Assembly: GCA_963677495.2 (NCBI GenBank)
Contig: CAXXOU010000001.1
Coordinates: 800,001-864,000, forward strand
Direction: 5' to 3'
DNA: 64,000 nt
Source: Candidatus Cloacimonadales bacterium
GTDB lineage: Bacteria > Cloacimonadota > Cloacimonadia > Cloacimonadales > JAFGVF01
In this document: positions 2,360-64,000 of the stretch, in pieces
Numbering within the stretch: the stretch's first letter is position 1
Layout of the letters: every line of letters begins with the position of its first letter
Position numbers and translations under genes: made by a program
Notes under the pieces: generated by a model
What the model saw: only the letters and a program-made list of their open reading frames with translations
Databases searched by the model: none
Told to the model about the DNA's origin: nothing

Positions 2360-2499
2360 CAGACTTCTAGCAGAGATGGAAAAGAATAATAGTGAATTTA
2401 TAAACTAATTGGTAGTGCTTACTGAAGGTTCATCTTTATGGTAATTATCCGTCTACTAGTAATTAACATTAGCTTAGAATATGGAAGTAGATATAAAAG

Positions 2500-2527
2500 A
2501 AGACCGTTATCGGTGGATAACGGTCTT
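2500..2527 (-). terminator. Intrinsic terminator of the minus-strand operon ending at 2546
   Basis: 12-bp perfect stem aagaccgttatc/gataacggtctt with an adjacent A-run (U-run on the minus strand). Confidence 0.75.
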
Positions 2528-2545
2528 AAATATTAGCCGGAAATC

Positions 2546-2806
2546 CTAAATCTCCATCATTTTAGCTGTTACATTTTCAAGTGCATTAAGTTTGCCCATC
2601 ATCTCATTAAGAATATCTTTTTCACCACGAACTTCAAGGATGATAAGACCATCTGTAGAGCAGATTTCTGCTGTAGCTTCATGGAGACCTAAACGTACTT
2701 GAATGTGGCATCCATATTCGGTTAGAATCTTCTGAGCTTCAATAGCAAACTTACTTCTTTGATCAATTTTGATAACCATAATTTTGTAAATCATATTATC
2801 CTCCAA
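2546..2806 (-). CDS. Small ACT-like protein, TM1266 / iron-only hydrogenase system regulator-like
   Basis: 86 aa; QKILTEYGCHIQVRLGLH and GLIILEV pattern typical of this family. Confidence 0.7.
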   Translation of the reverse strand: MEDNMIYKIMVIKIDQRSKFAIEAQKILTEYGCHIQVRLGLHEATAEICSTDGLIILEVRGEKDILNEMMGKLNALENVTAKMMEI

Positions 2807-10390: not shown

Positions 10391-10532
10391 CATTGCACTA
10401 TCATAATACAAGAGAGAAAATTGTCCGATTCTAGGGAGTCTCTTGGGCCTCTCCTGTACTGATTCCGAAGTGACTGTCAGTGCAGGTGGCAGAAATTGAC
10501 GGTTATAAATACAATATTAAGATGGTCTGATG
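10391..10532. repeat. 142-bp inverted-repeat-bounded element, copy A
   Basis: Left end cattgcactatcataata; GAGTCTCTTGGGC at offset 46; degenerate right end tattaagatggtctgatg; aligns ungapped to 40956-41097 and 56138-56279. Confidence 0.75.
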
Positions 10533-22699: not shown

Positions 22700-22868
22700 A
22701 ATTCTTCTCCATTCCTCACTTATTACATACCATCTATTAATATATAATAAAGTCAAGCATTCATTATTATATCATGCGTAAATCCCTAAGCTTAATCTAT
22801 TTTTTCCCCTTTTTTCTCGTTTTTAACTCCAATTTTCATGATTTTCTCCCAAAATTGCCCTGCTTCTT

Positions 22869-23020
22869 CCCTTCCAGTCCCCTGACATGGAAAGGTGTTT
22901 CAAAGGTCTCCCACAGGTGACCCTCTCGTGACCCTCTCGTGGAAAGGCTAAAGTTATTCACATCGTGTGGATAACTTGAATATTTATGGAAAACTTGTCA
23001 TAAGCACGGGACTGGAAGGG
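22869..23020 (+). repeat. Dispersed DnaA-box-pair element, copy 1
   Basis: Arms cccttccagtccc/gggactggaaggg; tandem gtgaccctctc; TTATTCACA-tcg-TGTGGATAA at 22954-22974; ~85% identical, ungapped, to 48029-48180. Confidence 0.85.
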
Positions 23021-23150
23021 TAGAGGAAGGCTCATTTCAAGTTTTTTTGTTGTACTATTCAGAAGGACTAAAGGGCATTGCAGGTAGAGAATAATTTCAC
23101 TTGCCAAAAATGTCTTTAGCTGTGATTAGTTTGGTAATGAAAATAGAAAG

Positions 23151-29870: not shown

Positions 29871-29953
29871 ACCACGGGTTGACCACGGGTAATCCACGGG
29901 TTAACCACGACTCGCGTGGTTAACCCGTGGATTACCCGTGGCTCAGCCGTGGT
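29871..29953. repeat. Palindromic array of 4+4 CCACGG units at 11-bp period
   Basis: CCACG at 29872/29883/29894/29905; CGTGG at 29915/29926/29937/29948; perfect 27-bp arms around a 5-nt loop. Confidence 0.9.
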
Positions 29954-35079: not shown

Positions 35080-35766
35080 CTATTCCCCTTTGCCCATAAA
35101 AGTTCTCAGTAACTCTCTATCAACAAGTTGGATACTAGCTTCTGGAGCTCCAAGAGTTCGTTCTATCATGCTTTCGTACGATTTGTAAGTTCTGAACATA
35201 TCTTCAGGTGAGAAACCATCAATGCAGTGCCCCTTAACTTCAGTCTGAGCCTGAATTGCCAATCCTTCTCCTGCAGCAAATATCATCACAGCTGTCATCT
35301 CCGGATCTTCTACATGGAAGTTACCCTCTTTGTTGCCTTGAATAATTATTTTACTAAACTCATTCTTCCAGAAAAGTAACAGTTTTCTATTCAGTTCACG
35401 TAGGAGATATGCATTCTTCTCCTCATAAATAATGCTTGAGAAGAAGACTAATTTCTCCTTATGCTGAAGCTTATATTCACCAACGGTCTTAAACATGAGG
35501 TTCATTTTTTCAATAGCATTAAGCTTGCTTTCATTTATAACAGGAATCGCTACACCCATAATATTTGTAATAATGTCTTCTATTACAGCCACCATAAGCT
35601 CTCGCTTAGATTTGAAGTAGTAATAAAATGTACCTTTAGATATACCAACTTCATCAATAATCCTATTTACTGATGTGTTTTCATATCCAATCTCCTGAAA
35701 CAAGCTCATGGCTGTCTCAACTATCTCGCTATATCTAACTTCATACTCTTTCGAGATACGTGCCAT
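35080..35766 (-). CDS. TetR/AcrR family transcriptional regulator
   Basis: GYENTSVNRII...GISKGTFYYYFKSK helix-turn-helix. Confidence 0.93.
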   Translation of the reverse strand: MARISKEYEVRYSEIVETAMSLFQEIGYENTSVNRIIDEVGISKGTFYYYFKSKRELMVAVIEDIITNIMGVAIPVINESKLNAIEKMNLMFKTVGEYKLQHKEKLVFFSSIIYEEKNAYLLRELNRKLLLFWKNEFSKIIIQGNKEGNFHVEDPEMTAVMIFAAGEGLAIQAQTEVKGHCIDGFSPEDMFRTYKSYESMIERTLGAPEASIQLVDRELLRTFMGKGE

Positions 35767-40707: not shown

Positions 40708-40955
40708 TTATCCTCATTTATAATTGTTTTTTTTATAAGATACAATAAGCTCTACAAGTCAATATTTATTTGTCCGATATCGTGCTTGCTCTCAAAATGT
40801 GACTTCAGCATAATTCGTAAACAATGAATCCACATCAAATCTGTAACTCATCTATACCTAATCTGCCATAACGAGTTTCTAACGGGGAGCTAACGGGAAG
40901 CTAACAGGGAACATATGCGTAGTAAAAGAGTAAAATCAATATGTATTGTCTGTAT

Positions 40956-41097
40956 CACTGCTCTATCTTAATTGAGCATAAAAGCATATCCGATTTTTAT
41001 GAGTCTCTTGGGCAACCCCTGGGCCGGAAGACAAGAGAGTGATAAGAAAATGAGTAGGGAATACTCTCCGCTAATCAAGTATTATGATAGAGCAATG
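40956..41097. repeat. 142-bp inverted-repeat-bounded element, copy B
   Basis: cactgctctatcttaatt ... tattatgatagagcaatg; GAGTCTCTTGGGC at 41001 (offset 46); preceded by CTAAC units at 40879/40890/40901. Confidence 0.85.
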
Positions 41098-46856: not shown

Positions 46857-47123
46857 AATGATTCCTTCCCTTACATTTTTATAATCATATATATATCAAA
46901 TGATAAACTTCAGTTTAGTTACTGAGAATTTATAAAATTACACTTACAGTGTTATGGTCAAGGAGATTATTTATAACACTATGGAGTGCACCTACTTTGT
47001 AGGTGTATCTTGCCATGCGACTAGCACAACTACTCAATGCCATCTGGAGCTGTCACCTGTACGACTGATAAGGAGTTTGGGGAAATGCGTACTTCGACTC
47101 AAAGCGATGTCTTGTCTCAACAC

Positions 47124-47168
47124 CTGTACCTTTGGAATGGTTGAAAACCTTGCAAATGGTGCACTTCG
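47124..47168 (-). repeat. 45-bp imperfect-hairpin repeat, copy 1 of 5
   Basis: ctgtacctttggaatggttgaaaaccttgcaaatggtgcacttcg; identical at 47756-47800; reverse complement with 1 difference at 56399-56443 and 63809-63853; partial at 63983-64000. Confidence 0.9.
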
Positions 47169-47253
47169 AAGGGAAAGCACCTCACAATTGTAACGAAACC
47201 CGCTTCGAATGACGGAATTAGCGAATCACACTATCGTTGCAATTCACTTCTTC

Positions 47254-47334
47254 CTACTTCATCAAAAGCATTTTATTGCTTTTCTGTTCCTTATCAGTCT
47301 TCACAACTGAGAAATACACGCCTGTTGTCACAGT
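47254..47334 (-). pseudogene. Orphan 3' end (26 codons plus stop) of a FlgD/T9SS-tail secreted-protein gene
   Basis: Translates TVTTGVYFSVVKTDKEQKSNKMLLMK*, versus TVATGVYFSVVKTNKEQKSNKMLLMK* at 63643-63723; in-frame TGA two codons upstream. Confidence 0.85.
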
Positions 47335-47404
47335 AACTCAGGAGAGTCGCAGTACAACGTAGTGCCAGTGCCCTCAATTGCATAAAACTCCTTCAGCTTG
47401 TTTT

Positions 47405-47601
47405 AGCCTTGAAAAGGCGTCTGTTCAATAGCCACATGCTTTGGCATGTGGTAAACGTAATCTAAAAAGATGTAGCCCTAAAGGGGCGTAAGATTAACAT
47501 CTTTGGTGATCCGACGCCCCATCAGGGCTAATCTTGGCCGCGAACTATAACCCCAAGCGACAAGTCGCATGGGGCTATTGAACAATCGCTCTTTCAGAGC
47601 T
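47405..47601. repeat. REPIN/MITE-like nested palindrome
   Basis: Outer arms agccttgaaaaggcgtctgttcaatagcc / ggctattgaacaatcgctctttcagagct; inner arms tagccctaaaggggcgt / acgccccatcagggcta. Confidence 0.75.
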
Positions 47602-47651
47602 TAATTTTTCCATTATTATTCCTTATTTTCTCTATTACAATTCCTGCGGAA

Positions 47652-47931
47652 CACTTGGGGATATGCCCAAGAATTGGACATGTGATTCGCAAGCTATTCG
47701 GAAGAGATGAAAAACTATTGTAAGAGAGCAAAAAAATGAAAATACCATCTGCAATCTGTACCTTTGGAATGGTTGAAAACCTTGCAAATGGTGCACTTCG
47801 TAGGAAGAAACACCCCACCGTTAAAACGGCACCCCTTCAGTCTTCGCTTAAAGCTACGCCCTGACAGGCTACGAGAGGGGAATGTCCAAGAGCACCATTT
47901 CGAAGGTCTAAGGACATTCGAAAGGTAGAAT
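47652..47931 (-). repeat. ~250-280-bp composite repeat, inverted copy of 56299-56547
   Basis: Near-identical reverse complement apart from scattered substitutions and a 32-bp insertion at 47837-47868. Confidence 0.9.
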
Positions 47932-48028
47932 ATTGCCATATTTCGCTATGAGTCCAACTCCCATCCGGTCGCTATGAGCCCAGCTAACAATTTCCACTAA
48001 CATTTTCCCCAATTTTGCCCTGTTTCAT

Positions 48029-48180
48029 CCCTTCCGGTTCCGTGACTAAAATAGGTGTTTCAAAGGTTAGCCACAGGTGACCCTCTCGTGACCCTCTCGT
48101 GGAATGGCACGATTTATCCACATCATGTGGATAACTTAAATATTTATGGGAAACTTGTCTTAGTCACGGGACTGGAAGGG
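48029..48180 (+). repeat. Dispersed DnaA-box-pair element, copy 2
   Basis: Arms cccttccggttccgtgactaa / ttagtcacgggactggaaggg; TTATCCACA-tca-TGTGGATAA at 48114-48134. Confidence 0.85.
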
Positions 48181-48411
48181 ATGCCTAAAGCACAAATTGG
48201 AATTAATTACTTTAAACAAGCTAAATACAGTTGAAGACATTCTTTCTACAGGTCTATACTAATCATAAATGTTATAAATGCTATTCTTGTACTTTATGGA
48301 TAACTATATGATAACAAATTTTTTACTTGCTAATATTATTGCTTTTATCAAAATTATCGGTCAACAATTGTAATCACTAAGAAGATGTATATATATTGAA
48401 GGAGACTCTAT

Positions 48412-51400
48412 ATGCAAAAAGTAGGAATTATTTGTATATTGTTGTTATGCTTGTCAGCGATGCTTACCGCTGATACAATCGCTATTAACAGCAATTCTGA
48501 TGACTTGGCTTTAATCAATTCATCTGCAACTGAAATCCAATTCAAATATGGATTTAATGGAATTGATATAACTAATCTTTCAAATGATGATAGGAATTTC
48601 AATCAGTTAATTATCCCTGAATCTATTATTGATGGTAAAATCGGGGAACCGGGATTACCTGTTAGAAAAAAACTTATTGAGATACCTTGGGGGGCAGATT
48701 ACTCAATAAAGATTACAAATTATAAAACAAGAAGAATCTCATTAGAAAATAGGAATAAAATATATCCTGTGCAACCCTCTATTGCTAAAAATGTGGATAT
48801 TGCCGATGTTCCTTTCGAAATGAATGAATCTTTGTATAGAACTGATGCTTTTACATCATCTGAACTCGTTTCTTTGCAGGAAGTTGGTGTTATGAGAGGT
48901 ATCAGAGTTGCCAGACTTGTAATCAATCCTGTGCAATACAATCCTGTCATGAATATGATAGAAGTAAAGTATGACATTGAATTCAGTATAGAGCTTTCCG
49001 GTAGCGATATGGCTTTAACAGAGTACAATAAAGATAAAGCTTACTCTCCATATTACGAAATCGTTTATAATCGTGTAAATAGGACTTATCCTGACCATGA
49101 CTACCCTTCGAATCCTGATATGAGAAGATACCCGATAAAGTATCTCATTGTTGCAAATAGAATGTTTGAGAACACACTGCAACAGTTTATTGAATGGAAA
49201 ACTAAGAAAGGGTTTGAAGTAATTGTAGGTTATACAGATACTATAGGTTCCTCATCATCAGCAATCAAAAGCTGGTTACAAGGACATTATGATGCAGGTA
49301 CACCTTCTGATCCTGCTCCTTCATTCGCTCTTATTGTTGGTGATGTTGCTCAGGTAACTAATTACGGTACCGGTTCAAGTTCTGCCAAAGGTACTGATCT
49401 TTATTACTACTGCTATGATGGTGGTAGTGATTATGTTCCTGATATGTACTACGGACGTTGGTCAGTTACTTCAACAACTGAGCTTCAGAACATCATTGAC
49501 AAGACACTATATTATGAGCAATATCAGTTTGCTACTCCATCTTATTTAGATAATGTAACACTTATTGCAGGTGTGGATGGTACATGGAACCCTAGAGTTG
49601 GACAAGCAACAATCCAATATGGTATGAATCAATATTTTAATTCAGCTCATGGATTTGCAAATGTTTACGACTATTTAACCTCATACTCAGGATGTTTCGA
49701 TACAATGGATAGTGGTGTTGGATTTATCAACTATACTGCTCATGGCTCAACAACCAGCTGGGCAGATCCATCTTTCAGTACTTCAGATATAAGTGGTATG
49801 ACAAACTCAGGAAAACCCACTTTTGCAATTGGTAACTGTTGCGTTACAGGTCAGTATACTGAAGTAGGAACCTGTTTTGCTGAACAATTCATCAGATCAG
49901 AAGACAAAGGTGCCTACGCATATATAGGCTCAGCTCCTAATACATACTGGTTCGAAGACTTCTACTGGTCAGTAGGTGCTTTCCCTATTTCAGGTACAAA
50001 TGACGGTTATGTACCATCTTATAGTGAAACTACCTGGGGTGCTTATGATGGTGCCTTTATGACTGATTATGTTACAACCGACGCTACAAAGTTCTTAGGA
50101 AATTTAGCAGTGACTGAAGTTCATGCACAGAACTTTGAAAATCACTCTAGTGATATCTATTACTGGCAAGCTTACATGACATTCGGTGACCCTTCTGTTG
50201 TACCATATTGGACACAGGGTACTACTAATAACTATACCACTAATCCATTTATACCTATTGGAGCTTCTACATTTACTGTTAACGCAGAAGCAGGCTCCTA
50301 TGTCGCTATTTCACAAAATGGAGTATTGCATGGTGCTGCTTTAGTCGGTTCAACAGGCACTGTAGATGTTCCAATCACTGCCTTCACAGGTACCGGAACA
50401 GCTGACCTTGTTATTACTAGACCACAGAGGCAACCTGTTATTACAACTTTACCTATTCAACCTCTGTCAGGTCCTTATGTCTCTATTGAAAGTGTTACAG
50501 TAAATGCCGGTGGTGATGATGTAATCTCTAATGGTGAAATTGTATACCTTACTTTACAGCTTGAGAATGTTGGTACTTCTACTTCAACATCGACTTATTT
50601 AACAGTAAGTGAATCTGATAGTTATATTACTTTGACTGACAATAATCAATCATTTGGTACTATTGCTTCAGGTGCAACAGCTAATGCTTCGAACTGCATA
50701 GCTTTCACAGTTTCATCCAGTTGTCCTAATGACCATCCAATTGTGCTTAATACAACAATCACCGGAAGTGGTGAAACTTGGGAAAGCACAATTAATTTAA
50801 CAGCTTATGCTCCTGAGATTAGCATTGAGTCTGTAACTGTTAATGATGGAGCAAACGGCAACCTTGATCCGAATGAAACTGCTAACTTAAATGTTACAGT
50901 CACTAATACAGGTGGTGCTATAGCTACAAACTTCAACTATACTTTATCAACAACATATGGCAATATCACTATCAATGATAACCAGGAGACAACATCAGTT
51001 GCTACAGGCAGTAGCTCTGTTCTTACTTTCCCAATCACAGTTAGCTCTGCTGCTCAAGTAGGTGATACTGCTACTTTTAATCTTGCTATGAGTGGAACAG
51101 GTTATGCTAACTCTGAAAACTTCTCATTAGCTATAGGCATTATTGCAGAGGACTTTGAAACAGGTGATTTCAATAGTTACTCATGGATGATGGGGGGTGA
51201 TGGTGACTGGACTATCGCAACCTCAGCATATGAGGGTACATATTCTGCTCAAAGCGGATCTATTGACCATTCAGAAACATCAGAACTTTCAATTGATATG
51301 GATGTAACATCTGCTGATGATATTACTTTCTATTATAGTGTCTCTTCGGAGTCCGGATACGACTATTTAAGATTCTATATTGATGGAGTAGAGCAAGGAG

Positions 51401-54400
51401 AATGGGCAGGTACAGTTGCCTGGACACAAGCTTCATATCCGGTTACAACCGGTAATCATACGTTCAAGTGGGCTTATGAGAAAGATGGTAGTGTATCTAA
51501 CAATTCTGACTGTGCTTGGATTGACTCTATTGTTTTCCCTCCATGTCAGATTGTAGTGCCGGAACCAAACATTAGCCTCTCCCCAACATCACTTGATTAT
51601 GGCAATGTAGCTGTTGGTGCTACAGCTGAAGACGTTTTCACTATTTCTAATACAGGAACCTCTACCCTATCCGGTTCTATCGTAACTCCATCAAGTTATT
51701 CAGTACAGGAAGTTACAAGCCGTTCAAAAGAACACCTGATAGCCAAAACTCGTAGAAATACTATCAATTATACAGTCGATGCCGGAGCAACTAAAGACTT
51801 TAGAGTTGTGTTTGCTCCAACTGCATTACTATGTTATAACTTCGATATTACAATAAACTCAAACGATTTAGATACACCTGTAACATTGCTTCCTGTTTCC
51901 GGTTGTGGTTCATCTATTGAAGCAAGTATCAACCCTACTTCAATGTCGGGAAATATGAACATTAATCAGACAGCCACAAGAAACATGACATTATCAAACA
52001 ATGGTAATATAGATATGACATATTCAGTTAGTCTCACTGATCCTGCTCGAACTACAGGCGGACCTGACACATTTGGTTATACATGGTCTGACAGTAATGA
52101 ATCAGGTGGTCCTGTCTTTAATTGGATTACTCCAAGCACTACAAATGAGATTACAAGTTTAGGTGATGATTCAGCCGGTACTGCTACACCAATAGGTTTC
52201 AACTTCCCATTCTACGGAACGGATTACAGTGATGTTTATGTTAACTCAAATGGTGTTATTACGTTTGGTGAAGGTTCAAGTTCATACTCTAACTCAACTT
52301 TACCTAATAGTAGTGCTCCAAACAACCTAATTGCCTGGTTCTGGGATGATATGAATCCCGCTGACAGTGATTTTACAGGACATATTTATTACCAAAATGG
52401 AACAGTGAATAGCACTAATGCATTTATCATCACTTTCCTAGATTATATGGAATATGGTGGTTCAGCAACACCTGGTGATTGCGTACAAGCACAGGTTATA
52501 TTGTTTGAAAACGGAAACATCAAGATTCAATATGACTATGTTGGTACTTCAATTGATTTGACCTCAGAGTCCATTGGTATTGAGAATGCTGATGGTACAG
52601 ACGGTTTACAAGTTGCTTACAACTCTGATGGTGTAACAATTACAGATGGTTATGCTGTTGAATTCAATATTGCAAGCTCAACTACTGAATGGATTACAAT
52701 TGCACCTCTTAGTGGTACTGTTTCAGGCGGTTCATCAGAAACATTGGTTGTTAACCTTGATACTACAGACCTGGAAGCCGGTGTATATGAAAAGAATATT
52801 GAGATTGCTACAAACGACCCGGATAATCCTGTTCTAACAGTTCCGGTTAGTATTAATGTTGGCATGTCTTCCGATCCGGGATTCTCAGTAGATGTTAACA
52901 ATCTGGACTTTGGTGATGTAATGGTAGGAAATACAGGTACAGAGGTAATAACTATCACTAATACAGGTGGTGCTACTCTTACCGGTGCAATCACTACCCC
53001 TTATGCTTACACAGTCAGTGTTCATAGCAGAGATAATGGAATACTTAGTAGTAAAGAAAAGGAAAGTATATTCCAAGCTTCAAAAACAATGAATCTTAGG
53101 AATAGCCTAAACTACTCAATAAATGCAGGACAGTCTCAATCATTTGATATTGATTTCACTCCTGTAAATCCAATTGTATATAATGGTAATATCACAATAT
53201 CATCTAATGATACTGACAATACATCAACTTATATACCTGTAACTGGTACAGGTGTTGTTGCTGACATTGATGTAACTCCTACTTCTGTTTCTGTTGAAAC
53301 ATCAGTTGAAACAACATTAGATAGAACTGTGCAGATATCCAATACAGGAAACTATGACCTAAATTATAGCGTAAGCTTAGAAGACCCAAGTCGTGGTTCA
53401 GGTGGACCTGATACTTACGGTTATTCATGGATTGACAGTAATGAAGCAGGTGGACCTTCATATAACTGGATCGATATTGCTTCAACAGGAACTGCTCTCA
53501 CATTAGGAGACGATGATTCAGAAGAGGTGACATTACCATTTACATTCAACTTCTATGGTAACGATTATAGTTCAATCTTTGTTGGTTCAAATGGTTTACT
53601 CAATTTTGGTTCAGGTTCTACAGTCTACTCTGATGTAGATATACCTAATACTAATGCTCCAAATAACATGATCTGCCCATTATGGGATGATTTGAAACCA
53701 ACCGGAGCTGAATGGGGTAATGTATATACTCAAGAGGTGAACGGTGAATTTGTAGTGCAATATGAAGCTGTATCACATTATAATGGTTCTACTGTTACTG
53801 ATCCTGTAACCTTTGAAGTTATTTTTAACTCAAATGGTTCTATTAAGTTCCAGTATGAATCTGTTGGAACAGAGACTGACCACCATATCGGAATAGAGAA
53901 TAGTGACGGTACTGATGGTCTACAGGTTGCATCAAGTGGATATGCTCAAGATGGTTTAGCTGTGCTTATCCAAAGTACAGTGTCAAACCCATGGATTAGC
54001 TGTTCCTCTACAGGTGGAACTCTTACCGGTGGTGCTTCTACAAATATAACTCTTACATTTGATTCTAATGGCTTAAGTCATGGAACATATAACAAGAACT
54101 TAGTTATTACAAGTAATGACCCTGATGAAGGTTCAATCGTTGTGCCTTGTACTTTAATTTATTCAACTTCTGCTGTACCAACTATCTCAATCAGTGAAAC
54201 TTCATTTGATTTCGGTGCTGTAGCAGTGGGTAGTAGTGCAAATGAAACAATCACAATAACCAACACAGGCGGAGGAACTTTAACAGGTTCAATCACCACT
54301 CCTTCAGGTTATAATGCTGCAATTGTTAGTAAACTAAGTCTTAGAAACTCATTAAACTTCAATCTCACAACCGGTGCCAGTGTGATGTATGATATTACAT

Positions 54401-55896
54401 TCACTCCAACAACTCAAAGCACTTATAATGGTAATATTGTTGTTACAAGTAATGACAGCTCTGCCCCATCTATTAATGTAGCTGTGACAGGTTCAGGTTA
54501 CTTGCCTGCTGATATAGATGTTAATCCCACAAGCTTCAGTTTCACTGCTGCACCTGATGTAACAGATTCTCAGACCCTTACAATTTCTAACATGGGTGGT
54601 CAGGACTTAACATACACAGTTGCACCGGAAGCAAGCTCTGGTGAACTTCTAAACGAATCATTCGATTCCGGTTTACCAACAAGCTGGACTGTTGATAATG
54701 GTGGCGATGCAAGCCACACTTGGAACAACATAACAGATTATAGTGGTGACTCGATAGATACTACAAACTTCATGTTCATCGATAGTGATGATGCTGGTTC
54801 AGGAGTAGCTTTTGATGATGCATTAGTTTCACCTGTTGTACCTTGTGCATCAGCTCAAAATCTTCTCCTTGAATTCGACCAATACTTCAGATTCTACAGT
54901 TCAGGTGGCGATGAAAAAGCAGATGTTGATGTCTGGGATGGCTCAGCTTGGCAAAACGTCCTTACTATGACTTCACAAACACATGGAAGTTGGACAGCTC
55001 CTGATCATCAGAATATTGATATTACAGCTTACGCAAACGCTGGTCTTCAGGTTAGATTCAGATACTATGATGCTGATTACGACTGGTTCTGGGCTGTTGA
55101 TAATGTTACTATTACAGCAACCGGTGGTTCATCAAGCTGGTTAACTGTTGATGCAAGTTCTTCTGTTTCAGGTACTGTTTTAGCAAATGGAAACGATCAG
55201 ATAGCTGTTCAGGTTAATACAGCTGGTTTAACTGAAGGAGATTACAGTAAAGATATTATTATCACAAGTAACGATCCTGATGAAAACACAATCACTGTTC
55301 CGGTGACTCTCACAGTAACAGGAGCACAGAATGACCCAAGCTGGGACGAGCAAGTTGTTGTATATCCAAACAACACTGCAACTATCTATTGCGAAGTAAA
55401 CATTGATGGTATTCCTGCTTCCACAGGCGATGAAATAGGTGCATTCGTGAATGGTGAGTGCAGAGGTTATGGTGAAATAACTCTTATTACCAGAGATAAT
55501 GCTTATGCAACTCTTCTCATTCAGGCATCAGGTCCAAGTGAGGTTGTTAACTTCCAAATCTACGATGCTTCAAATGATGAAGTTTATGATGTAGAGGATA
55601 CATGTGAGATTACACCTGGTGTTGTTATTGGTGATGCTGTAGAACCTGAAGTTCTTAATGCAGTTACTACTATCCCTTCACCACAAGATCTAGCAATCTC
55701 AATTAATGGTGACCAATTGACTCTTAGCTGGACTGCTATACCATCTGCTACCGGATACAATGTGTATGTATCTGATACAAATGATTTCACCGGTATCACA
55801 GCAATCCCTGTTGCTACTAATAGCTGGACAGGTTCATCAACAGACAGATATAAATTCTTTATGGTGACCGCTGTGAAAGGACAAGCAACAAGATAA
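48412..55896 (+). CDS. Giant Lys-gingipain (Kgp)-like peptidase C25 with repeated Ig-like and adhesin-like modules
   Basis: Signal peptide; GEPGLP prodomain; INYTAHGS...WADP, AIGNCC, GAYAYIGSAPNTYWFEDFYWSVGA; repeated SNDPD Ig modules and two GGPDTFGY..DS modules. Confidence 0.9.
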   Translation: MQKVGIICILLLCLSAMLTADTIAINSNSDDLALINSSATEIQFKYGFNGIDITNLSNDDRNFNQLIIPESIIDGKIGEPGLPVRKKLIEIPWGADYSIKITNYKTRRISLENRNKIYPVQPSIAKNVDIADVPFEMNESLYRTDAFTSSELVSLQEVGVMRGIRVARLVINPVQYNPVMNMIEVKYDIEFSIELSGSDMALTEYNKDKAYSPYYEIVYNRVNRTYPDHDYPSNPDMRRYPIKYLIVANRMFENTLQQFIEWKTKKGFEVIVGYTDTIGSSSSAIKSWLQGHYDAGTPSDPAPSFALIVGDVAQVTNYGTGSSSAKGTDLYYYCYDGGSDYVPDMYYGRWSVTSTTELQNIIDKTLYYEQYQFATPSYLDNVTLIAGVDGTWNPRVGQATIQYGMNQYFNSAHGFANVYDYLTSYSGCFDTMDSGVGFINYTAHGSTTSWADPSFSTSDISGMTNSGKPTFAIGNCCVTGQYTEVGTCFAEQFIRSEDKGAYAYIGSAPNTYWFEDFYWSVGAFPISGTNDGYVPSYSETTWGAYDGAFMTDYVTTDATKFLGNLAVTEVHAQNFENHSSDIYYWQAYMTFGDPSVVPYWTQGTTNNYTTNPFIPIGASTFTVNAEAGSYVAISQNGVLHGAALVGSTGTVDVPITAFTGTGTADLVITRPQRQPVITTLPIQPLSGPYVSIESVTVNAGGDDVISNGEIVYLTLQLENVGTSTSTSTYLTVSESDSYITLTDNNQSFGTIASGATANASNCIAFTVSSSCPNDHPIVLNTTITGSGETWESTINLTAYAPEISIESVTVNDGANGNLDPNETANLNVTVTNTGGAIATNFNYTLSTTYGNITINDNQETTSVATGSSSVLTFPITVSSAAQVGDTATFNLAMSGTGYANSENFSLAIGIIAEDFETGDFNSYSWMMGGDGDWTIATSAYEGTYSAQSGSIDHSETSELSIDMDVTSADDITFYYSVSSESGYDYLRFYIDGVEQGEWAGTVAWTQASYPVTTGNHTFKWAYEKDGSVSNNSDCAWIDSIVFPPCQIVVPEPNISLSPTSLDYGNVAVGATAEDVFTISNTGTSTLSGSIVTPSSYSVQEVTSRSKEHLIAKTRRNTINYTVDAGATKDFRVVFAPTALLCYNFDITINSNDLDTPVTLLPVSGCGSSIEASINPTSMSGNMNINQTATRNMTLSNNGNIDMTYSVSLTDPARTTGGPDTFGYTWSDSNESGGPVFNWITPSTTNEITSLGDDSAGTATPIGFNFPFYGTDYSDVYVNSNGVITFGEGSSSYSNSTLPNSSAPNNLIAWFWDDMNPADSDFTGHIYYQNGTVNSTNAFIITFLDYMEYGGSATPGDCVQAQVILFENGNIKIQYDYVGTSIDLTSESIGIENADGTDGLQVAYNSDGVTITDGYAVEFNIASSTTEWITIAPLSGTVSGGSSETLVVNLDTTDLEAGVYEKNIEIATNDPDNPVLTVPVSINVGMSSDPGFSVDVNNLDFGDVMVGNTGTEVITITNTGGATLTGAITTPYAYTVSVHSRDNGILSSKEKESIFQASKTMNLRNSLNYSINAGQSQSFDIDFTPVNPIVYNGNITISSNDTDNTSTYIPVTGTGVVADIDVTPTSVSVETSVETTLDRTVQISNTGNYDLNYSVSLEDPSRGSGGPDTYGYSWIDSNEAGGPSYNWIDIASTGTALTLGDDDSEEVTLPFTFNFYGNDYSSIFVGSNGLLNFGSGSTVYSDVDIPNTNAPNNMICPLWDDLKPTGAEWGNVYTQEVNGEFVVQYEAVSHYNGSTVTDPVTFEVIFNSNGSIKFQYESVGTETDHHIGIENSDGTDGLQVASSGYAQDGLAVLIQSTVSNPWISCSSTGGTLTGGASTNITLTFDSNGLSHGTYNKNLVITSNDPDEGSIVVPCTLIYSTSAVPTISISETSFDFGAVAVGSSANETITITNTGGGTLTGSITTPSGYNAAIVSKLSLRNSLNFNLTTGASVMYDITFTPTTQSTYNGNIVVTSNDSSAPSINVAVTGSGYLPADIDVNPTSFSFTAAPDVTDSQTLTISNMGGQDLTYTVAPEASSGELLNESFDSGLPTSWTVDNGGDASHTWNNITDYSGDSIDTTNFMFIDSDDAGSGVAFDDALVSPVVPCASAQNLLLEFDQYFRFYSSGGDEKADVDVWDGSAWQNVLTMTSQTHGSWTAPDHQNIDITAYANAGLQVRFRYYDADYDWFWAVDNVTITATGGSSSWLTVDASSSVSGTVLANGNDQIAVQVNTAGLTEGDYSKDIIITSNDPDENTITVPVTLTVTGAQNDPSWDEQVVVYPNNTATIYCEVNIDGIPASTGDEIGAFVNGECRGYGEITLITRDNAYATLLIQASGPSEVVNFQIYDASNDEVYDVEDTCEITPGVVIGDAVEPEVLNAVTTIPSPQDLAISINGDQLTLSWTAIPSATGYNVYVSDTNDFTGITAIPVATNSWTGSSTDRYKFFMVTAVKGQATR

Positions 55897-55915: not shown

Positions 55916-55942
55916 AAGCCTGCCCTAACCGGCAGGCTTTTT
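55916..55942 (+). terminator. Intrinsic terminator
   Basis: aagcctgcc-ctaacc-ggcaggctt followed by T residues. Confidence 0.8.
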
Positions 55943-56137
55943 AATACTTAGTTTTTTCCCATATACTTCATAACTCTTATCCTAAGAGAACTGCTCTCTC
56001 ACAATTATAATCTATCTTGTATTTCTATCTCATCAGAAGCCAATCCAAATCCGATTCTCTGTAACGGGAAGCTAACGGGCATCTAACGGGAAGTCAATAG
56101 GTGTCTCATTGGAATTAAGGCAGAGCAATTACCCCAT

Positions 56138-56279
56138 CATTGCTCTATCATAATAACCATGACACTGATATCAGATTCCAATGAGTCTCTTGGGCCTCCC
56201 CGGGGCAAAATGATAAGAGAGTGACCAGAATAACTGCTGAAATCGACTCATGAAAATGCTTTATTATGATAGGGCATAG
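56138..56279. repeat. 142-bp inverted-repeat-bounded element, copy C
   Basis: cattgctctatcataata ... tattatgatagggcatag; GAGTCTCTTGGGC at 56183 (offset 46); preceded by TAACGGG units starting at 56061/56072/56083. Confidence 0.85.
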
Positions 56280-56298: not shown

Positions 56299-56600
56299 AT
56301 TGTACCTTTCGAATGCTCTATTGACCTTCGAAATGGTAGTCTTGGACATTCCCCTCTTGTAGAGGGGTGCCGTTTTAACGGTGGGGTGTTTCTTCCTACG
56401 AAGTGCACCATTTGCAAGGTTTACAACCATTCCAAAGGTACAGATTGCAGATGGTATTTTCATTTTTTTGCTCTCTTACAATAGTTCTTCATTTCTTCCG
56501 AATAGCTTGAGAATCACATGTCCATAACTTGGGCATATCCTCAAGTGATGCTCAAGTGTTCCTCAAGGATTGCTTAGGTTGTTCACAAGATTTGCAATAG
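56299..56600 (+). repeat. Composite repeat (45-bp hairpin, REP-like palindrome, 11-bp CTCAAG array)
   Basis: Inverted copy of 47652-47931; CTCAAG-like units at 56540/51/62/73/84/95. Confidence 0.85.
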
Positions 56601-56919: not shown

Positions 56920-57471
56920 ATGAAAATGCAAGTCACAAAAACAAGCATTGTTTTATTCATGCTTACAATCGTTATATCCCTATCAAGTATTGGGATAAGT
57001 CAAAGTGATGTAAACCTTACAGGTCTTCAATTGTTTAATAATGACCGGATAAGGAATACTATTGCTGTGCGTAAAGAACAGGGTGTCTGGAACATGTGGT
57101 CAACTTCTTTTGGTTTAGAACGAGAGGACATCACACCAACAAATGCTAAATCGGGAGAATACATCAAGTTTTGTTTAGATGTTAATGATGAACCTTTTCC
57201 GTCTGTAACGTTAATTGATCATTGTAGTTTCCCTATGAATTCAGCATTTGAAAGTGCTAATAACTTGGTGAACTCTGTTTCAGCATATACTACTGCTGAT
57301 TCATTAGCAATATTTTCTGATACAAGCTATTCTCAATTTGAAAAAAACGGTAGGTATTGGGGAGCTAGTGGTTGCTGGGCTAGTCCGGTTCTGGATAGTA
57401 CAAACGATTATGTTTATATAATCAACAAAAGTGGTATGCTTATGCAATTCGATAGTACAGCTGGTACATGA
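56920..57471 (+). CDS. N-terminal part (signal peptide plus first propeller blade) of a probably frameshifted secreted protein
   Basis: AGGAGG RBS, signal peptide, PQQ-like blade WASPVLD..DYVYIINKSG; ends in an ATGA overlap with the next ORF. Confidence 0.7.
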   Translation: MKMQVTKTSIVLFMLTIVISLSSIGISQSDVNLTGLQLFNNDRIRNTIAVRKEQGVWNMWSTSFGLEREDITPTNAKSGEYIKFCLDVNDEPFPSVTLIDHCSFPMNSAFESANNLVNSVSAYTTADSLAIFSDTSYSQFEKNGRYWGASGCWASPVLDSTNDYVYIINKSGMLMQFDSTAGT

Positions 57472-60400
57472 ATAATATTGTTCAATTCTGTTATGACTTA
57501 AGACAAAGAGAAACTTTTTCTGACGGTGATTTGTATAAGTTTGAGTATATCGCAACGCCTGTAGTTGTGAATGACATTTTGTATGTACTTGGTATTAAAG
57601 GTATGTTCAGATTCTCATTATCCCCTACAATGTCATTCATTGATTACGCTCCATTCAATCTAAACGCAACTGATTTTCTCATGAATAGTCCGACTCTTAA
57701 TGAGAATGACACTAAGATGTACATTGTTTCTAAAGAGGGTAAGGCCATCGAATACAGCTTAACCGGATCTTTTACCGGGATAGGACATATAACCGGAGGG
57801 TGTTCAGCATCAGCAGTTTGTGATAATGATGGTTTAGTTTATTTTGCAGGAGAAACAGGTTCTATTCATTATTATGACCCTTATAATCAATCTGAATTTA
57901 TTGAAATATTTGACTCAGTTGATGATGCTTCATTTACTTCAAGTCTGCTCAATGATTTGAGTCATAACATATATGCATTTGCTGATAATGGTAAAGTATT
58001 CTGTGTAAATGACTGGTACAGTCCTGATAGTTTAAATGCTGAGATAGAGATTAATCATTCACTGTATAGATCATTAGATTCCGAGGATGACATATACAAA
58101 TCATTTAATAATAATGGTAACGTTTATAATGCACAAGATGATACAACAAGTGTATGTGTATTAGCCGGTGATAATGACAATGTATTGGATATTTCAGATG
58201 CTTACCAACAGTTTACAGGTCTATCATCAAGTGGTCTTAAAATGTTTTTCCTATATTATAACACTGAATCGAATAGATTATCAAGTGTACAAGAGGTAGT
58301 AAACTATGATGGGATAAGCACATATACTTGGGGTGGTTTAAACTCCTATCTTGAAGATATTGCAAATGGTGCGTCTAAAGATCCTCAGAATATCTTACGT
58401 GATAATGTATTTGGTTGTGAAAAAGGGTATGTGTGGACTAGTGCAACAGGAATTGATAGTTATGTAGAAGGTATAAACGTACCTAACCCTGATGAAGAGA
58501 ACGATGCCTTATCTCCTGAATGTTTAGCGAAGATGCATGAAAGTACGTGTCATGAATATGATTATGAGATTGCTGATGTTAGCATAAACGTAACCTCACA
58601 AGACTGGAATGTTAGCCAAATATTCCTTAACTATTATCCTGCATCTACAACTGGATATCTGTCTGATGTATTCTCGAATCCGCATAATTATATAAGTATT
58701 GAGTTTACGGATAGAAGTCCAATAACTCTTGGAGGTTATGAGATTGAAGAAGGATTACTAAATCAAATTAATATTGATTTGAGTGGAAGTTTACTTGTAG
58801 ATAGTGATGTAACAATTTCAGCTGATGCGTTCTATTCTGATATCATAATTACTGATACCGGTTCTTTAACCATTCTTCCCAGAGTCTCACTATATTGTGA
58901 TGATGCAGTTTTATATAATGGAGGAGAATTGATTTCATTAGGAAGATTTGACTGTATCAATCTTGATTGTGAATATGGTTCCTGTAGTTCGTCTTCGGAG
59001 ACTAGGAACTATGACAATGCGTACGTAAATGCTTTTGGATCATTCAATATTCAAAACTACTCAATTAATGTAGATGCACAACTTAGAGATGCTGATAACA
59101 TCATTTCCTATGAACGTAACTCTGATTTGAATGGGAACCTCAATTATTATGGTGATAGTATAACTATCGGACAATTCACCAACAATGCTATAAGCATGAT
59201 TGAAGGTATGGGAAACATAGATATTGCAAACATTGATAATCTTAGTGATATGTCATTCGCTGTTTATGGTAGGATTCTTGGAAGCTCCTTCGAATCTAAT
59301 GGAGCGACTACTAGTATTACAAGTGTTTTTCGGCATACAACAAACACTAACTTTACTTTTGGCACTATGGATTTCATAGATTCTTCTATTTTGGAGATTG
59401 ATAGGAGCTTAGCCTCTTGTGAAGCTTTATTTAATGGAGGAGTATTAAGCCTTGATTCTAGTGATTTTATTATCGAAGAACCGGAAAAAGTTTCCTTTGT
59501 TAATGGCTGTCAGGTGATTTGTAATAACACTTCAGAACTTAAAGTACTGGGTCATGAAAATGTTGAAGATTATAGTGATTTGGAAAATGAAGATATTGGT
59601 TATACTCATCTGTCATTAACAAACAGTAGTATTACATTAAGTGGTGCTACTTGCAGATTTGAACTTAGATCAGCTACACTTTCTCTTAACAGTTCATCAA
59701 TAAACGTTTATTACAGTGCACAATTAGAAACTGATAATCCGGACCTGGATGATAATAATATGTTTCCTGAAATTGTGTTAGATAATGGTTCCGAAATATT
59801 TGTTAAAGGAGGAGTGCAATTAGCCAGTGAGTTCTATATTGACTGGGGAACTAAAATATATGGTAACTGTTTAACTGATGCAACAACAACCGGAGATATC
59901 ATTAAGAGTGCAAGCGGAGGGATTATTACTACTGGAGATTATGATGATTATCAGTTTGATACAGGAAACTTACAGATTTTGCCAGAACTTCCTAAAGTAG
60001 TTATTTCAGTGCAAGATACACTTAAAACATGGGATGGAATATCAGTATCTAAACTCAATGATTCGATTGATGCTTATAACCTTCTTCATTGCGATATTGG
60101 ATATATAAAAGGTCTAATATATGATGGCTCTACTTTTGATGAAAGCAAGGTAGAATTATGGCAGACTGATTTTCATCATGGTGGATATGCAATATTCAAT
60201 GGTACCGAAATATCCATAGATGATTGCAAGTTCAATCATAATAACTCTACCCCAATCCAAGCATATGAGTCTATTGTCTATATTAAGGATAGTGAAGTTA
60301 ATAATAATCAGGGTTCTGGTTTACAGTTAAGCTTATGCTCAAATGTTGCTAGTGGCTCGACACTTGATAATGTAGAAGTTAAATCCAATAAAGCTGACGG

Positions 60401-61586
60401 TATCGTTTTTAAAAAGCACTTACTATCATTCAATGGATGTGATATCAAGTATAATGGAGCTAATGGTATATCATCATTCAGAGCTGAAACAGATAGTCCC
60501 ATCGAAGATTGCTATTTGGATGAAAATGATTTAGCTGAGATGTATGGCTCAAGGCATACTTACAGGATTGAAACAGGTGGAAACAATTTTGATGATTTAT
60601 TGCCAGAGGGTGGAAATGATGCTTATTTCCTAATGTTAACAGACTGGGAGCAAGGCAGAGATCCTGTTCCAATTTATGGAAATGACTTTAACAATGTTGC
60701 AACTAGTTCTTGGGTTGATACTTTGTTAATAGCAAAGCTATCTCCTTCAAATGCTAGTGCTTGGGAGCTAGATCCACCTGTTAAGTCTAGTAGTCCTTTC
60801 AATACAGCACTTAACTACTTTAATCAAGGTGATTACAGTACAGCAGGACTACTCTTTAAACAGATAATCCAAAACTCAATAGAGTCTGATGATGCAATTA
60901 AAGCTTTGCAGTATCTTTTGCCTGTAGAAGTTGTAACAAATCAAAACTACAGTGGATTATATAGCTTCTTAGATGGACTTATTGCTCCGCAAAACACAGA
61001 TATTGAGCAATCGATAGTTGACAGTAAAATCAGTGTACTAATCAGGGATGAACAGTATGTAAACGCTATAAGTCAGCTTCAAGATATCATTGATAATACT
61101 ACATCTGTTATAGATAGCATTAATGCATCTATTGAACAAGCTTATTGCTACATGAAACTCGTTGAAGACGAGTCTAAAGAGTTACCAAAGGATTGCTCTA
61201 TGCAACCTCAATCAATCAATGAGTTTGTACAGATGACTGATGATTTATACTGGAGTCTTCCATATTTAGCAAAACAAGATTCTTATGATGAGGATAATCC
61301 GGATATTCCACAAATCACAGATGTAAGAAACTATCCTAACCCATTCAATCCAACTACTAACATTTGCTTTAGCTTAAAGAAACCGGGAAAGGTTAAAGTG
61401 AAAATCTACGATGTTAGAGGAAGACTAATCAAGACCCTTTGCAATGAGATTCTTTTAGCCGGATTAAATACCATTGTATGGGATGGTAAGGATAAAAATG
61501 AGCGTAATGCATCAACAGGTATATATTTCTATCGTATTTCATCAAAATCAGATGAAGTAGCCGGAAAGATGCTGTTGCTTAAATAA
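57468..61586 (+). CDS. Large secreted-type protein: PQQ-like propeller, beta-helix, TPR-like helices, FlgD/T9SS-type C-terminal domain
   Basis: Blades IATPVVV, MNSPTL, SASAVCD, TSSLLND; tail NYPNPFNP...WDGKD...STGIYFY...KMLLLK; no signal peptide of its own. Confidence 0.8.
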   Translation: MNNIVQFCYDLRQRETFSDGDLYKFEYIATPVVVNDILYVLGIKGMFRFSLSPTMSFIDYAPFNLNATDFLMNSPTLNENDTKMYIVSKEGKAIEYSLTGSFTGIGHITGGCSASAVCDNDGLVYFAGETGSIHYYDPYNQSEFIEIFDSVDDASFTSSLLNDLSHNIYAFADNGKVFCVNDWYSPDSLNAEIEINHSLYRSLDSEDDIYKSFNNNGNVYNAQDDTTSVCVLAGDNDNVLDISDAYQQFTGLSSSGLKMFFLYYNTESNRLSSVQEVVNYDGISTYTWGGLNSYLEDIANGASKDPQNILRDNVFGCEKGYVWTSATGIDSYVEGINVPNPDEENDALSPECLAKMHESTCHEYDYEIADVSINVTSQDWNVSQIFLNYYPASTTGYLSDVFSNPHNYISIEFTDRSPITLGGYEIEEGLLNQINIDLSGSLLVDSDVTISADAFYSDIIITDTGSLTILPRVSLYCDDAVLYNGGELISLGRFDCINLDCEYGSCSSSSETRNYDNAYVNAFGSFNIQNYSINVDAQLRDADNIISYERNSDLNGNLNYYGDSITIGQFTNNAISMIEGMGNIDIANIDNLSDMSFAVYGRILGSSFESNGATTSITSVFRHTTNTNFTFGTMDFIDSSILEIDRSLASCEALFNGGVLSLDSSDFIIEEPEKVSFVNGCQVICNNTSELKVLGHENVEDYSDLENEDIGYTHLSLTNSSITLSGATCRFELRSATLSLNSSSINVYYSAQLETDNPDLDDNNMFPEIVLDNGSEIFVKGGVQLASEFYIDWGTKIYGNCLTDATTTGDIIKSASGGIITTGDYDDYQFDTGNLQILPELPKVVISVQDTLKTWDGISVSKLNDSIDAYNLLHCDIGYIKGLIYDGSTFDESKVELWQTDFHHGGYAIFNGTEISIDDCKFNHNNSTPIQAYESIVYIKDSEVNNNQGSGLQLSLCSNVASGSTLDNVEVKSNKADGIVFKKHLLSFNGCDIKYNGANGISSFRAETDSPIEDCYLDENDLAEMYGSRHTYRIETGGNNFDDLLPEGGNDAYFLMLTDWEQGRDPVPIYGNDFNNVATSSWVDTLLIAKLSPSNASAWELDPPVKSSSPFNTALNYFNQGDYSTAGLLFKQIIQNSIESDDAIKALQYLLPVEVVTNQNYSGLYSFLDGLIAPQNTDIEQSIVDSKISVLIRDEQYVNAISQLQDIIDNTTSVIDSINASIEQAYCYMKLVEDESKELPKDCSMQPQSINEFVQMTDDLYWSLPYLAKQDSYDEDNPDIPQITDVRNYPNPFNPTTNICFSLKKPGKVKVKIYDVRGRLIKTLCNEILLAGLNTIVWDGKDKNERNASTGIYFYRISSKSDEVAGKMLLLK

Positions 61587-61593
61587 ACTAATT

Positions 61594-61630
61594 GCAAGAG
61601 TCAGGATAATACTGGCTCTTGCTTCTTTTC
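61594..61630 (+). terminator. Intrinsic terminator
   Basis: gcaagagtcag/ctggctcttgc stem followed by ttcttttc. Confidence 0.7.
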
Positions 61631-61633
61631 TTA

Positions 61634-61662
61634 TTGACCTTAATTTCGATATATTTTAGATT
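61634..61662 (+). promoter_or_regulatory. Sigma-70-type promoter
   Basis: TTGACC-N17-TAGATT just upstream of the AGGAG RBS and ATG 61678. Confidence 0.5.
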
Positions 61663-61677
61663 TGATTAGGAGTTATC

Positions 61678-63723: not shown

Positions 63724-63856
63724 GAAGAAGTGAATCGCAATGATAGTGTGATTCGCTAATTCCGTCATTCGAAGCGGGTTTCGTTACAATTGCGAGGTGC
63801 TTTCCCTTCGAAGTGCACCATTTGCAAGGTTTACAACCATTCCAAAGGTACAGGTG
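63724..63856 (+). repeat. Downstream flank repeated inverted at 47121-47253; includes the 45-bp hairpin repeat
   Basis: 4 mismatches in 133 bp against the reverse complement of 47121-47253 (hand count). Confidence 0.9.
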
Positions 63857-64000
63857 ACTGCTTCAGATTAATGAAAGAATTATCTCCTTAGAGAGTATCA
63901 TTCAACTTAAGAATTCAGGAAGTCCGCTATCACTTCACTGCGTTCAACTCCTGCAAACTCCCTGAATTGCGATTAGTTCCTTCGAAGTGTACCATTTGCA

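Follow-up and report, generated by a model that had tools for sequence, protein, structure and literature searches.

ERIC and Correia/NEMIS repeats are intergenic elements of 100-160 bp that carry terminal inverted repeats, keep to a narrow length range, are often co-transcribed and form hairpins that are cut by RNase III. In the loops of the gal repressosome and of the ara and lac systems, operators lie roughly 90-210 bp apart at integral numbers of turns, with an in-vivo helical repeat near 11 bp; an architectural protein sits at the apex of such looped repressors and phase-preserving shifts are tolerated. The small RNAs Qrr and GlmY/GlmZ occur as few paralogues per genome, have an invariant single-stranded segment, and are preceded by activator sites at a fixed upstream distance. 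Here, we compare with these systems an element of 142 bp that is present in three copies (A, B, and C) in a stretch of 64,000 nt from a Candidatus Cloacimonadales bacterium (GCA_963677495.2, contig CAXXOU010000001.1, positions 800,001-864,000 of the forward strand; hereafter, the window). A first reading of this window, referred to below as the original prediction, had drawn attention to the constant length of the copies. Conserved noncoding elements are usually recognized by their sequence or by covarying helices; this one is recognized by a spacing that has survived full turnover of the sequence.

ERIC and Correia elements exist in tens to hundreds of fairly similar copies, the latter with TA duplications, and unlike the present element they lack saturated spacers between invariant blocks. 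Looped repressors regulate a defined adjacent promoter, whereas two of the six copies described here (three in the window and three in other genomes) lie between convergent 3' ends, and total length is kept too. Qrr and GlmY/GlmZ differ in having intrinsic terminators, recognizable promoters, conservation along their length, and no long helix joining the two ends.

Among described kinds of element, the REPIN comes closest, but the element does not qualify as one. In the sections of PMC3116915 drawn on here, REPINs are described as having inverted conserved ends at preferred spacings of 71 and 110 bp around a less conserved spacer, as being intergenic and predicted to form a hairpin in single-stranded DNA (ssDNA) or mRNA, and as leaving singlets as decay products. 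On the basis of those sections, the element is similar in its inverted ends at a fixed spacing, its less conserved spacer, its hairpin potential, and its intergenic position (PMC3116915). However, each REP is a small palindrome and the arms of the element are not; REPINs occur as tens to hundreds of similar copies, whereas the element has one to three exact-motif copies that have diverged to saturation; and the element contains an invariant internal 13-mer and other blocks, within an interior of ~106 bp that is mostly unpaired rather than a continuous hairpin. Neither a RAYT domain nor the Y1 transposase domain expected of a REPIN/RAYT system was seen in the window or at the other loci.

For 11-bp arrays, the model is parC of R1. 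The portion of PMC2241845 used here describes a site of ~159 bp that folds back on itself, in which a fixed central segment is flanked on either side by five 11-bp iterons, with one ParR dimer bound per iteron. Its combination of 11-bp direct-repeat arrays and fixed geometry provides a precedent for the iteron arrays found beside the element (PMC2241845). As presented in that portion, parC has ten direct iterons, no inverted arms, and a position beside parM/parR on a plasmid; in contrast, the arms of the element are inverted, two hexamers are seen per arm, and the location is chromosomal with no par gene nearby. Since parM, parR, and parA are not adjacent in the window or at the loci, the element is not a ParR/parC centromere despite its 11-bp arrays. 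Other described classes fit no better. No reverse transcriptase domain of the kind that accompanies a retron msr-msd was found in the window. Compared with miniature inverted-repeat transposable elements (MITEs), the element has the terminal inverted repeats and lacks target-site duplications, many similar copies, and length variation. Rfam gave no matches at gathering score in the 64-kb window, plasmid and phage collections gave no match to B plus its upstream boxes (blastn, distant setting), and the listings from a literature search on Cloacimonadota intergenic repeats, small RNA, and the 13-mer contained nothing relevant.

Six copies of a single length

All three window copies are 142 bp and align without a gap within the element, as had been claimed, at pairwise identities of 55-63% (Table 1). 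The hand count of about 89 of 142 identical positions between B and C was reproduced on computation. The landmarks that the original prediction had listed, namely GATT at offsets 37-40, GAGTCTCTTGGGC at 46-58, and AAG(A/T)GA(G/C)TG at 78-86, are present in every one of these copies; so are its 18-bp inverted arms, for which the left-arm sequence quoted had been taken from C and the right-arm sequence from B. No further full copy was detected in the window by nhmmer profile search or by a covariance-model search with filters off. The 13-mer GAGTCTCTTGGGC occurs there exactly three times, and four times with up to two mismatches (0.79 expected).

We ran one exact-pattern scan for GATT-N5-GAGTCTCTTGGGC across 185,579 species genomes. 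Three of the 29 loci returned are true relatives and all three are from Cloacimonadota: L007 and L027 come from one metagenome-assembled genome (MAG), whereas L017 is on a Cloacimonadales chromosome that is complete at 3.1 Mb. In the other 26, whose hosts belong to unrelated phyla, the profile match is confined to the searched pattern; by our arithmetic, ~69 chance matches are expected for 17 fixed bases in 2 x 596 Gb. The exact motif is thus present once in the complete chromosome, twice in the MAG, and three times in the window, a distribution that is a lower bound because only the exact pattern in species genomes was covered. In the foreign copies, the arms, the AAGTGAGTC block, and the length are independent observations. 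The original prediction had proposed checking lengths genome-wide, and the relatives from these two other genomes agree with it: each measures 142 bp from arm end to arm end. Identity among the six copies is 53-73%, with variable columns near random, and the window copies differ from one another as much as they do from copies in foreign genomes.

No indel is found in any of the four spacers in five of the six copies. In the remaining one, L027, the distance from left arm to core is 25 bp rather than 36, and that from core to right arm is 90 bp rather than 79; in the covariance-model alignment, 11 positions are deleted to the left of its core and 11 nt are inserted to the right. The block of GATT and core has therefore moved 11 bp, or one helical turn, towards the left arm while total length is unchanged, and the size of this shift equals the period of the direct repeats described below. 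A compensated one-turn shift together with kept spacing is a clean signature of geometric constraint. Neutral decay would scatter indels, and none are seen between columns that are saturated, which argues that the spacing is selected. Judged from these alignments, the element is under selection for spacing and neutral decay of a MITE is excluded. This strengthens what had originally been argued from three copies, with six of six copies at 142 bp, identities of only 53-73%, and the cancelling -11/+11 shift. Moreover, two other findings named beforehand as counting against the idea did not appear: there was no Rfam match, and neither a transposase nor target-site duplications were found (window; six copies). 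As far as sequence comparison can establish it, this is a real, selected, length-locked noncoding element of a few Cloacimonadota genomes.

Table 1. Coordinates of the element, its parts, and associated repeats in the 64,000-nt window.
Feature	Position	Strand	Remarks
Copy A	10391..10532	+	142 bp; 124.2 bits (covariance model)
Copy B	40956..41097	+	142 bp; 136.5 bits (covariance model)
Copy C	56138..56279	+	142 bp; 140.5 bits (covariance model)
B left arm, CACTGCTCTATCTTAATT	40956..40973	+	inner CTATCA-type hexamer 40963-40968
B right arm, TATTATGATAGAGCAATG	41080..41097	+	inverted partner of left arm
GATTY-N4-GAGTC, 5-bp inverted repeat or hairpin (B)	40992..41005	+	4-nt loop fully variable
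Invariant core GAGTCTCTTGGGC (B)	41001..41013	+	same core at 10436-10448 (A) and 56183-56195 (C)
Two CTTGGGC / CYNGGGC units (B)	41007..41024	+	11 bp apart; alternatively small hairpin UCU.GGG / CCC.GGG
AAGAGAGTG, imperfect inverted partner of core (B)	41033..41041	+	from reading of aligned rows
Four TAACGRG / TAACAGG boxes upstream of B	40869..40908	+	11-bp period
Three TAACGGG boxes and one weak unit upstream of C	56062..56101	+	11-bp period, register as at B
Partner unit C'	55989..56130		arm-like inverted repeats exactly 142 bp apart; 7 bp left of C
11-bp-phased G-triplets	2284, 22858, 22910, 29876, 48007, 56066		different repeat families
Young repeat family	47121-47334 / 63643-63856; 47645-47836 / 56363-56554; 47869-47908 / 56323-56362; 63979-64000

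Conserved blocks and inverted arms

Between the two arms, the kept blocks follow one another in the order TCCGATT (offsets 34-40), GAGTCTCTTGGGC (46-58), a second GGGC 11 bp on (66-69), and GA.AAG.GAGT (75-85), with a weak GAAAnTGA block near offsets 102-110. The spacers between these blocks have lost their sequence similarity, but not one base of length. Two of the blocks may pair locally. The inverted repeat GATTY-N4-GAGTC is paired in five of the five copies counted, with one pair being U-G on the plus strand, and is also present in the L027 row of the covariance-model alignment. Similarly, seven of the nine positions of the core partner AAGAGAGTG pair in every copy, the two mismatches varying in place among copies.

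Across the 18 arm positions, 13 Watson-Crick pairs, three G-T pairs, and two mismatches are found in A, whose arms are the most diverged in the window yet still pair; B has 15 Watson-Crick pairs, one A-C, and two mismatches, and C has 15, one G-T, and two mismatches. For all six copies (108 positions), the totals are 89 Watson-Crick, seven G-T, one A-C, and 11 other. Both sides of the arms have changed between the foreign copies (CTATCACAATA / TATTGTGATAG) and those of the window (CTATCATAATA / TATTATGATAG). Complementarity between the two arms of one copy does not, however, exceed that between arms taken from different copies (the observed value is reached in 80 of 720 permutations); the arms thus resemble a consensus that has been conserved.

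Each arm is itself a direct repeat. CTATCA-N5-CTATCA is exact in the left arm of L007, both arms of L027, and the left arm of L017, and has one mismatch in the right arm of L017; the outer hexamers are weaker in the window, as in the left arm of B, where GTATCA lies 11 bp upstream of the inner hexamer. The 11-bp distance between the two hexamers of an arm places both on the same helical face. From centre to centre, the inner hexamers of every copy are separated by 122 bp, which corresponds to 11.1 turns at 11 bp per turn. The arms of the window copies are not self-complementary. A solo two-hexamer arm is also present at 835-860 of L017, 108 bp upstream of a gene for a TerB-domain protein.

The hexamers CTATCA / TGATAG are identical to the half-sites of the tet operator, and a TetR-family gene is located at 35080-35766, 5 kb from B. 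This is a lead only, since the hexamers of the element are direct repeats 11 bp apart with inverted partners 122 bp apart.

Upstream boxes, a partner unit, and 11-bp arrays

Boxes at -77, -66, and -55 had been reported for B and C, and we found them at both loci. Each locus in fact has four units at 11-bp spacing, including an extra one at -88 of B, and CTAACGGG occurs five times in the window against 0.35 expected. TAACGGG boxes are lacking at A, L007, L027, and L017. The boxes at C lie within a partner unit, C', which scored 21.9 bits (E about 0.01 for the window; covariance model, roughly calibrated) and retains 16 of the 22 invariant arm columns, whereas only 13 or 11 of the 31 inner invariants are kept. 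It is without a core, and its interior contains the boxes and a displaced TCCGATTC. At B, the boxes are in the same register and the outer arms have decayed. Since the boxes of C are inside C', they are part of a partner unit and not of a longer version of the element; hence, of the suggestion that the full unit exceeds 220 bp, the presence of boxes beside B and C stands, and their assignment to the element does not.

Arrays of 10-11-bp repeats with other sequences are found upstream of two relatives. L017 is preceded by GTCCCTGT and L027 by TCCCACTT x4, the latter within a unit of 141 bp that has an inverted repeat of 14 bp without mismatch. Within the window, the pattern GGG-N8-GGG-N8-GGG, which has an 11-bp phase, occurs six times against 0.04 expected, always in intergenic repeat elements. 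Phasing of G-triplets at 11 bp is a genome-wide habit, and no explanation considered here accounts for it.

Candidate functions of the element

Our preferred reading, put forward tentatively, is that the element is a selectively maintained, DNA-level assembly site for a sequence-specific protein complex. An oligomer of one arm-binding protein would occupy both arms and close or wrap a loop of ~120 bp, or ~11 turns, with the core blocks shown on a defined face of the loop to the same or a second factor. Such a complex could serve as an architectural or regulatory device (a loop, roadblock, or insulator) that is not tied to one neighbour; the location of two copies between convergent 3' ends argues against a promoter dedicated to an adjacent gene. 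The 11-bp iteron arrays (TAACGGG at B and C, others at L017 and L027) may be auxiliary binding arrays, as in plasmid centromeres, and those in partner units may add cooperative binding in the manner of ParR on parC. Consistent with these proposals are the one-turn slide in L027 with total length restored, the 11-bp direct repeats in arms, core, and boxes, and the persistence of arms without a core (C') and as a solo arm (L017). In addition, the consensus fold (alifold) has no helix in the 18-nt spacer and, in the 38-nt spacer, just a hairpin of 3 bp, although both spacers are fixed in length. A search for a conserved promoter upstream found none, and A and C are each separated from the preceding gene by a hairpin belonging to that gene. 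Were the constraint to act on DNA, it would indicate that this uncultivated and little-studied phylum has a site-specific protein that loops or wraps DNA in a complex, with a link to the wider 11-bp-phased G-triplet arrays of these genomes.

Several observations weigh against this reading. Conservation along the whole element shows no period of 10.5-11 bp, and the phasing thus depends on specific repeats and one rearranged copy. This result, like the absence of strand bias in the composition of the variable columns, speaks against a simple DNA contact on one helical face. The seven G-T against one A-C pairs in 108 arm positions point to a folded single strand, and the consensus fold energy is -23.8 on the plus strand versus -12.8 on the minus strand. 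Relative to shuffles, the 106-nt interior of the copies gave z values of -1.72, -1.19, -1.02, -1.88, -0.39, and +0.30 on the plus strand (-0.65, +0.19, +0.38, -1.84, +1.21, and +1.65 on the minus strand), and three of 29 pairs, all in the arms, have changed on both sides with pairing kept (5-6 sequences). The outer hexamers are weak in the window copies. Invariance of GATT and core (17 bases) in L007, L027, and L017 follows from the construction of the search. Finally, no candidate binding protein emerged, and no neighbour gene is common to the six loci, the flanking genes differing at all of them; the original prediction that no cognate protein is visible in the window holds. In choosing the DNA reading, the geometric evidence outweighs the 7:1 count of G-T over A-C, although six copies cannot separate it from a reading at the level of RNA.

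That alternative, which we consider rather unlikely but better placed than those that follow it, is a structured noncoding RNA of about 142-230 nt on the plus strand, with one to three paralogues (by exact motif) acting in trans. The arms would be its closing helix P1, GAUUY-N4-GAGUC and UCU.GGG / CCC.GGG would be small hairpins, and the 13-mer would be a protein-binding or target-pairing segment; its promoter would be activated through the boxes at B and C. In keeping with this, G-T pairs in the arms outnumber A-C by seven to one, the plus-strand consensus fold is about twice as stable as that of the minus strand, and z for the interior is negative on the plus strand only (Stouffer sum about -2.4, our own arithmetic). 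In the proposed structure, 93.1% of cells are paired, a share that falls to 41-48% if the partners are displaced by 1-3 columns; its covariation score is attained by 14 of 500 shuffles and its paired fraction by 25 of 500 (5-6 sequences). Also in favour, the stem of GAUUY-N4-GAGUC is kept while its loop is fully variable, and a C-to-U change in two of five copies pairs only on the plus strand. Against the RNA reading, the stems of the small hairpins consist of invariant bases, which cannot covary, and almost no covariation is seen in them. The core partner AAGnGAGTn always has two of nine positions mismatched, in varying places, and arms are no more complementary within than between copies. 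A fixed length would be unusual for a 38-nt spacer with a predicted hairpin of 3 bp and an 18-nt spacer with none, the compensated -11/+11 shift has no RNA rationale, and the 11-bp direct repeats, C', and the solo arm fit DNA better.

An exact motif found one to three times per genome or window in an element conserved across species would suit an RNA gene, as would the two copies between convergent genes, which fit an independent gene. At L007, and only there, a terminator-like hairpin with a T-run lies 63 nt downstream on the strand of the element. However, no conserved sigma-70-type promoter was found upstream, and the variable columns show no strand composition bias (A vs T, p = 0.07; G vs C, p = 0.93). 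For the three intergenic regions and three foreign loci, Rfam gave no family even at permissive E-values; the sole overlaps with a copy were at chance level (mir-184 over B, E 7.8; sn2991 at the edge of A, E 3.2). A constraint acting on RNA, if true, would define a new RNA class with an unusual length rule.

It is improbable that the element is a nonautonomous mobile element of the MITE, foldback, or REPIN kind, in which arms bound by a transposase encoded elsewhere, together with the internal block and the length, would be kept by selection for continued mobility. The terminal inverted repeats with two direct-repeat sites per end would be expected of one, as would an intergenic position beside other foldback repeats, the adjacent pair of units at C, the single arm of L017, and flanking genes that differ at all six sites. 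REPINs likewise share fixed preferred spacings, inverted ends, and singlets, in the sections of the account cited (PMC3116915). Against this, no direct repeat of 2-10 bp common to more than two of the six copies was present at symmetric boundaries from -4 to +25 bp, where only 2-bp chance matches were obtained, and neither a transposase, RAYT, or integrase domain nor an autonomous element with matching ends was found in the window or the three foreign loci. The exact motif occurs just once in a complete 3.1-Mb chromosome and twice in the second genome. Identity within the genome (55-63%) is like that between genomes, so there has been no recent burst. Furthermore, the arms are not palindromic, unlike REPs, and neither neutral nor burst dynamics explain saturated spacers without indels.

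A bolder form of our preferred, DNA-level reading would see the 142-bp unit as the footprint of an undescribed bacterial nucleoprotein particle, in which a protein oligomer measures a fixed DNA contour of ~11 turns between inverted two-hexamer arms; we regard it as a long shot. The particle would read internal sites by helical face and would be accompanied by lineage-specific 11-bp G-triplet iteron arrays. If true, Cloacimonadota would possess a new type of architectural element on the chromosome. An RNA counterpart may be conceived equally well, in which a protein-measured scaffold RNA has fixed-length, sequence-free segments as exchangeable guide-like modules. When the variable spacers themselves were considered as guides, no match of at least 12 nt to the window or home locus was found, and the longest, at 11 nt, were as chance predicts; a guide-like reading of these spacers was rejected.

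A site-specific recombination substrate, either an inverton or a folded ssDNA site for a recombinase or HUH enzyme, is very unlikely: inverted arms do flank a short segment, the paired units at C provide four arms as in a multiple-inversion system, G-T tolerance fits a folded single DNA strand, and the hairpin GATTY-N4-GAGTC is directly followed by invariant TCTTGGGC, but neither the window nor the foreign loci contain a recombinase, relaxase, or Rep gene, B and C do not differ in how the core is oriented with respect to the boxes, a flipped promoter would have no flanking gene to drive at two of the copies, and described inverton families vary in length.

Other candidates were tried and rejected. 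A small open reading frame (ORF) was considered, with a 59-codon frame in B, a stop after 10 codons in C, and no start in A; the 11-nt shift in L027 would break any reading frame, and a coding explanation was therefore rejected. A sigma-54 promoter in core or arms has the GG-N10-GC spacing in B only (by eye, both strands). An outward sigma-70-like promoter, with a TTGAC-like hexamer 16 nt from TATGAT of the arm, was flagged by a scan in A and C; it was not adopted, as the -35 is good in only four of six copies and two copies have no gene to drive. Resemblances to attC, retrons, hammerhead, and twister were dismissed by eye and with Rfam. Within a minus-strand methyltransferase gene beside B, AAGTCTCTTAGGC at 40558-40570 matches the core with two mismatches, and the methyltransferase mRNA would pair with the core over 13 positions with G-U allowed; this near-match is consistent with chance (0.79 expected) and was set aside.

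As a small, defined, 142-bp probe with three natural variants in one window, the element is suited to pull-down and transcript mapping.

Genomic context and neighbouring repeats

Copy A and both of its neighbours are on the plus strand, with a histidine-kinase gene ending 120 bp before the copy and a 2-hydroxyacid dehydrogenase ORF starting 97 bp beyond it. B lies between two minus-strand genes, an arrangement shared by L017, and the convergent ORF downstream of B has no assigned function. C begins 241 bp after a gene for a C25 peptidase of 2494 aa, beyond the hairpin of that gene (55916-55939), and is followed 640 bp away by an ORF of 183 aa without assigned function. L007 and L027 are between the 3' ends of convergent genes, so a promoter or operator role for one neighbour is not general. 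Across the six loci, the flanks have no shared sequence except for the boxes of B and C. At L017, positions 2341-4022 encode an OLD-family nuclease (AAA + TOPRIM), a 211-aa ORF, a 23S-rRNA-IVS-like protein, and the TerB-domain protein; this neighbourhood is defence-island-like, which is not seen at the other five loci.

The window contains further repeats. A young family with 93-96% identity and ACCATTnnnAAGGT-like units is found in at least four places, among them directly downstream of C and in a stretch of 1.55 kb that lacks genes (46857-48411); the 'first' dispersed element implied by the original prediction is probably this family. A second, foldback family (22843-23020 / 48003-48180) has 84% identity across 178 nt and long inverted arms at 48009-48200 and 22852-23037; part of it recurs in inverted orientation at 2244-2313. 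The family includes a palindrome of two TTATCCACA-type nonamers (2245-2271, 22951-22977, and 48111-48137), which match the DnaA-box consensus, and beside it two tandem 11-bp units, GTGACCCTCTC x2. Another palindrome, at 29871-29953, has 39-bp arms that are 90% complementary and contain four CCACGGGT units each at an 11-bp period; a LolA/FtsX/ABC operon ends on one side of it and a gene for a CCA-adding enzyme starts on the other.

Gene strand switches from minus (26.5-46.9 kb) to plus (48.4-63.7 kb) across the repeat-filled gap at ~46857-48411, and the cumulative GC skew has its minimum at 50-52 kb. The gap is possibly a replication origin region, although the skew also tracks the coding strand; a dnaA gene is not present in the 64-kb window. 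B and C flank the gap at distances of about 6 and 8 kb. With genes for C25 peptidases, HydF, many two-component proteins, and type IX secretion tails, the window has the look of a Cloacimonadota chromosome, a placement also suggested by the fact that all relatives of the element belong to this phylum. Homologues of C25 (gingipain-type) with Ig-like repeats, of 1116 and 2494 aa, are encoded at 13705-17055 and 48412-55896, and two type IX secretion-tail proteins within 57468-63723.

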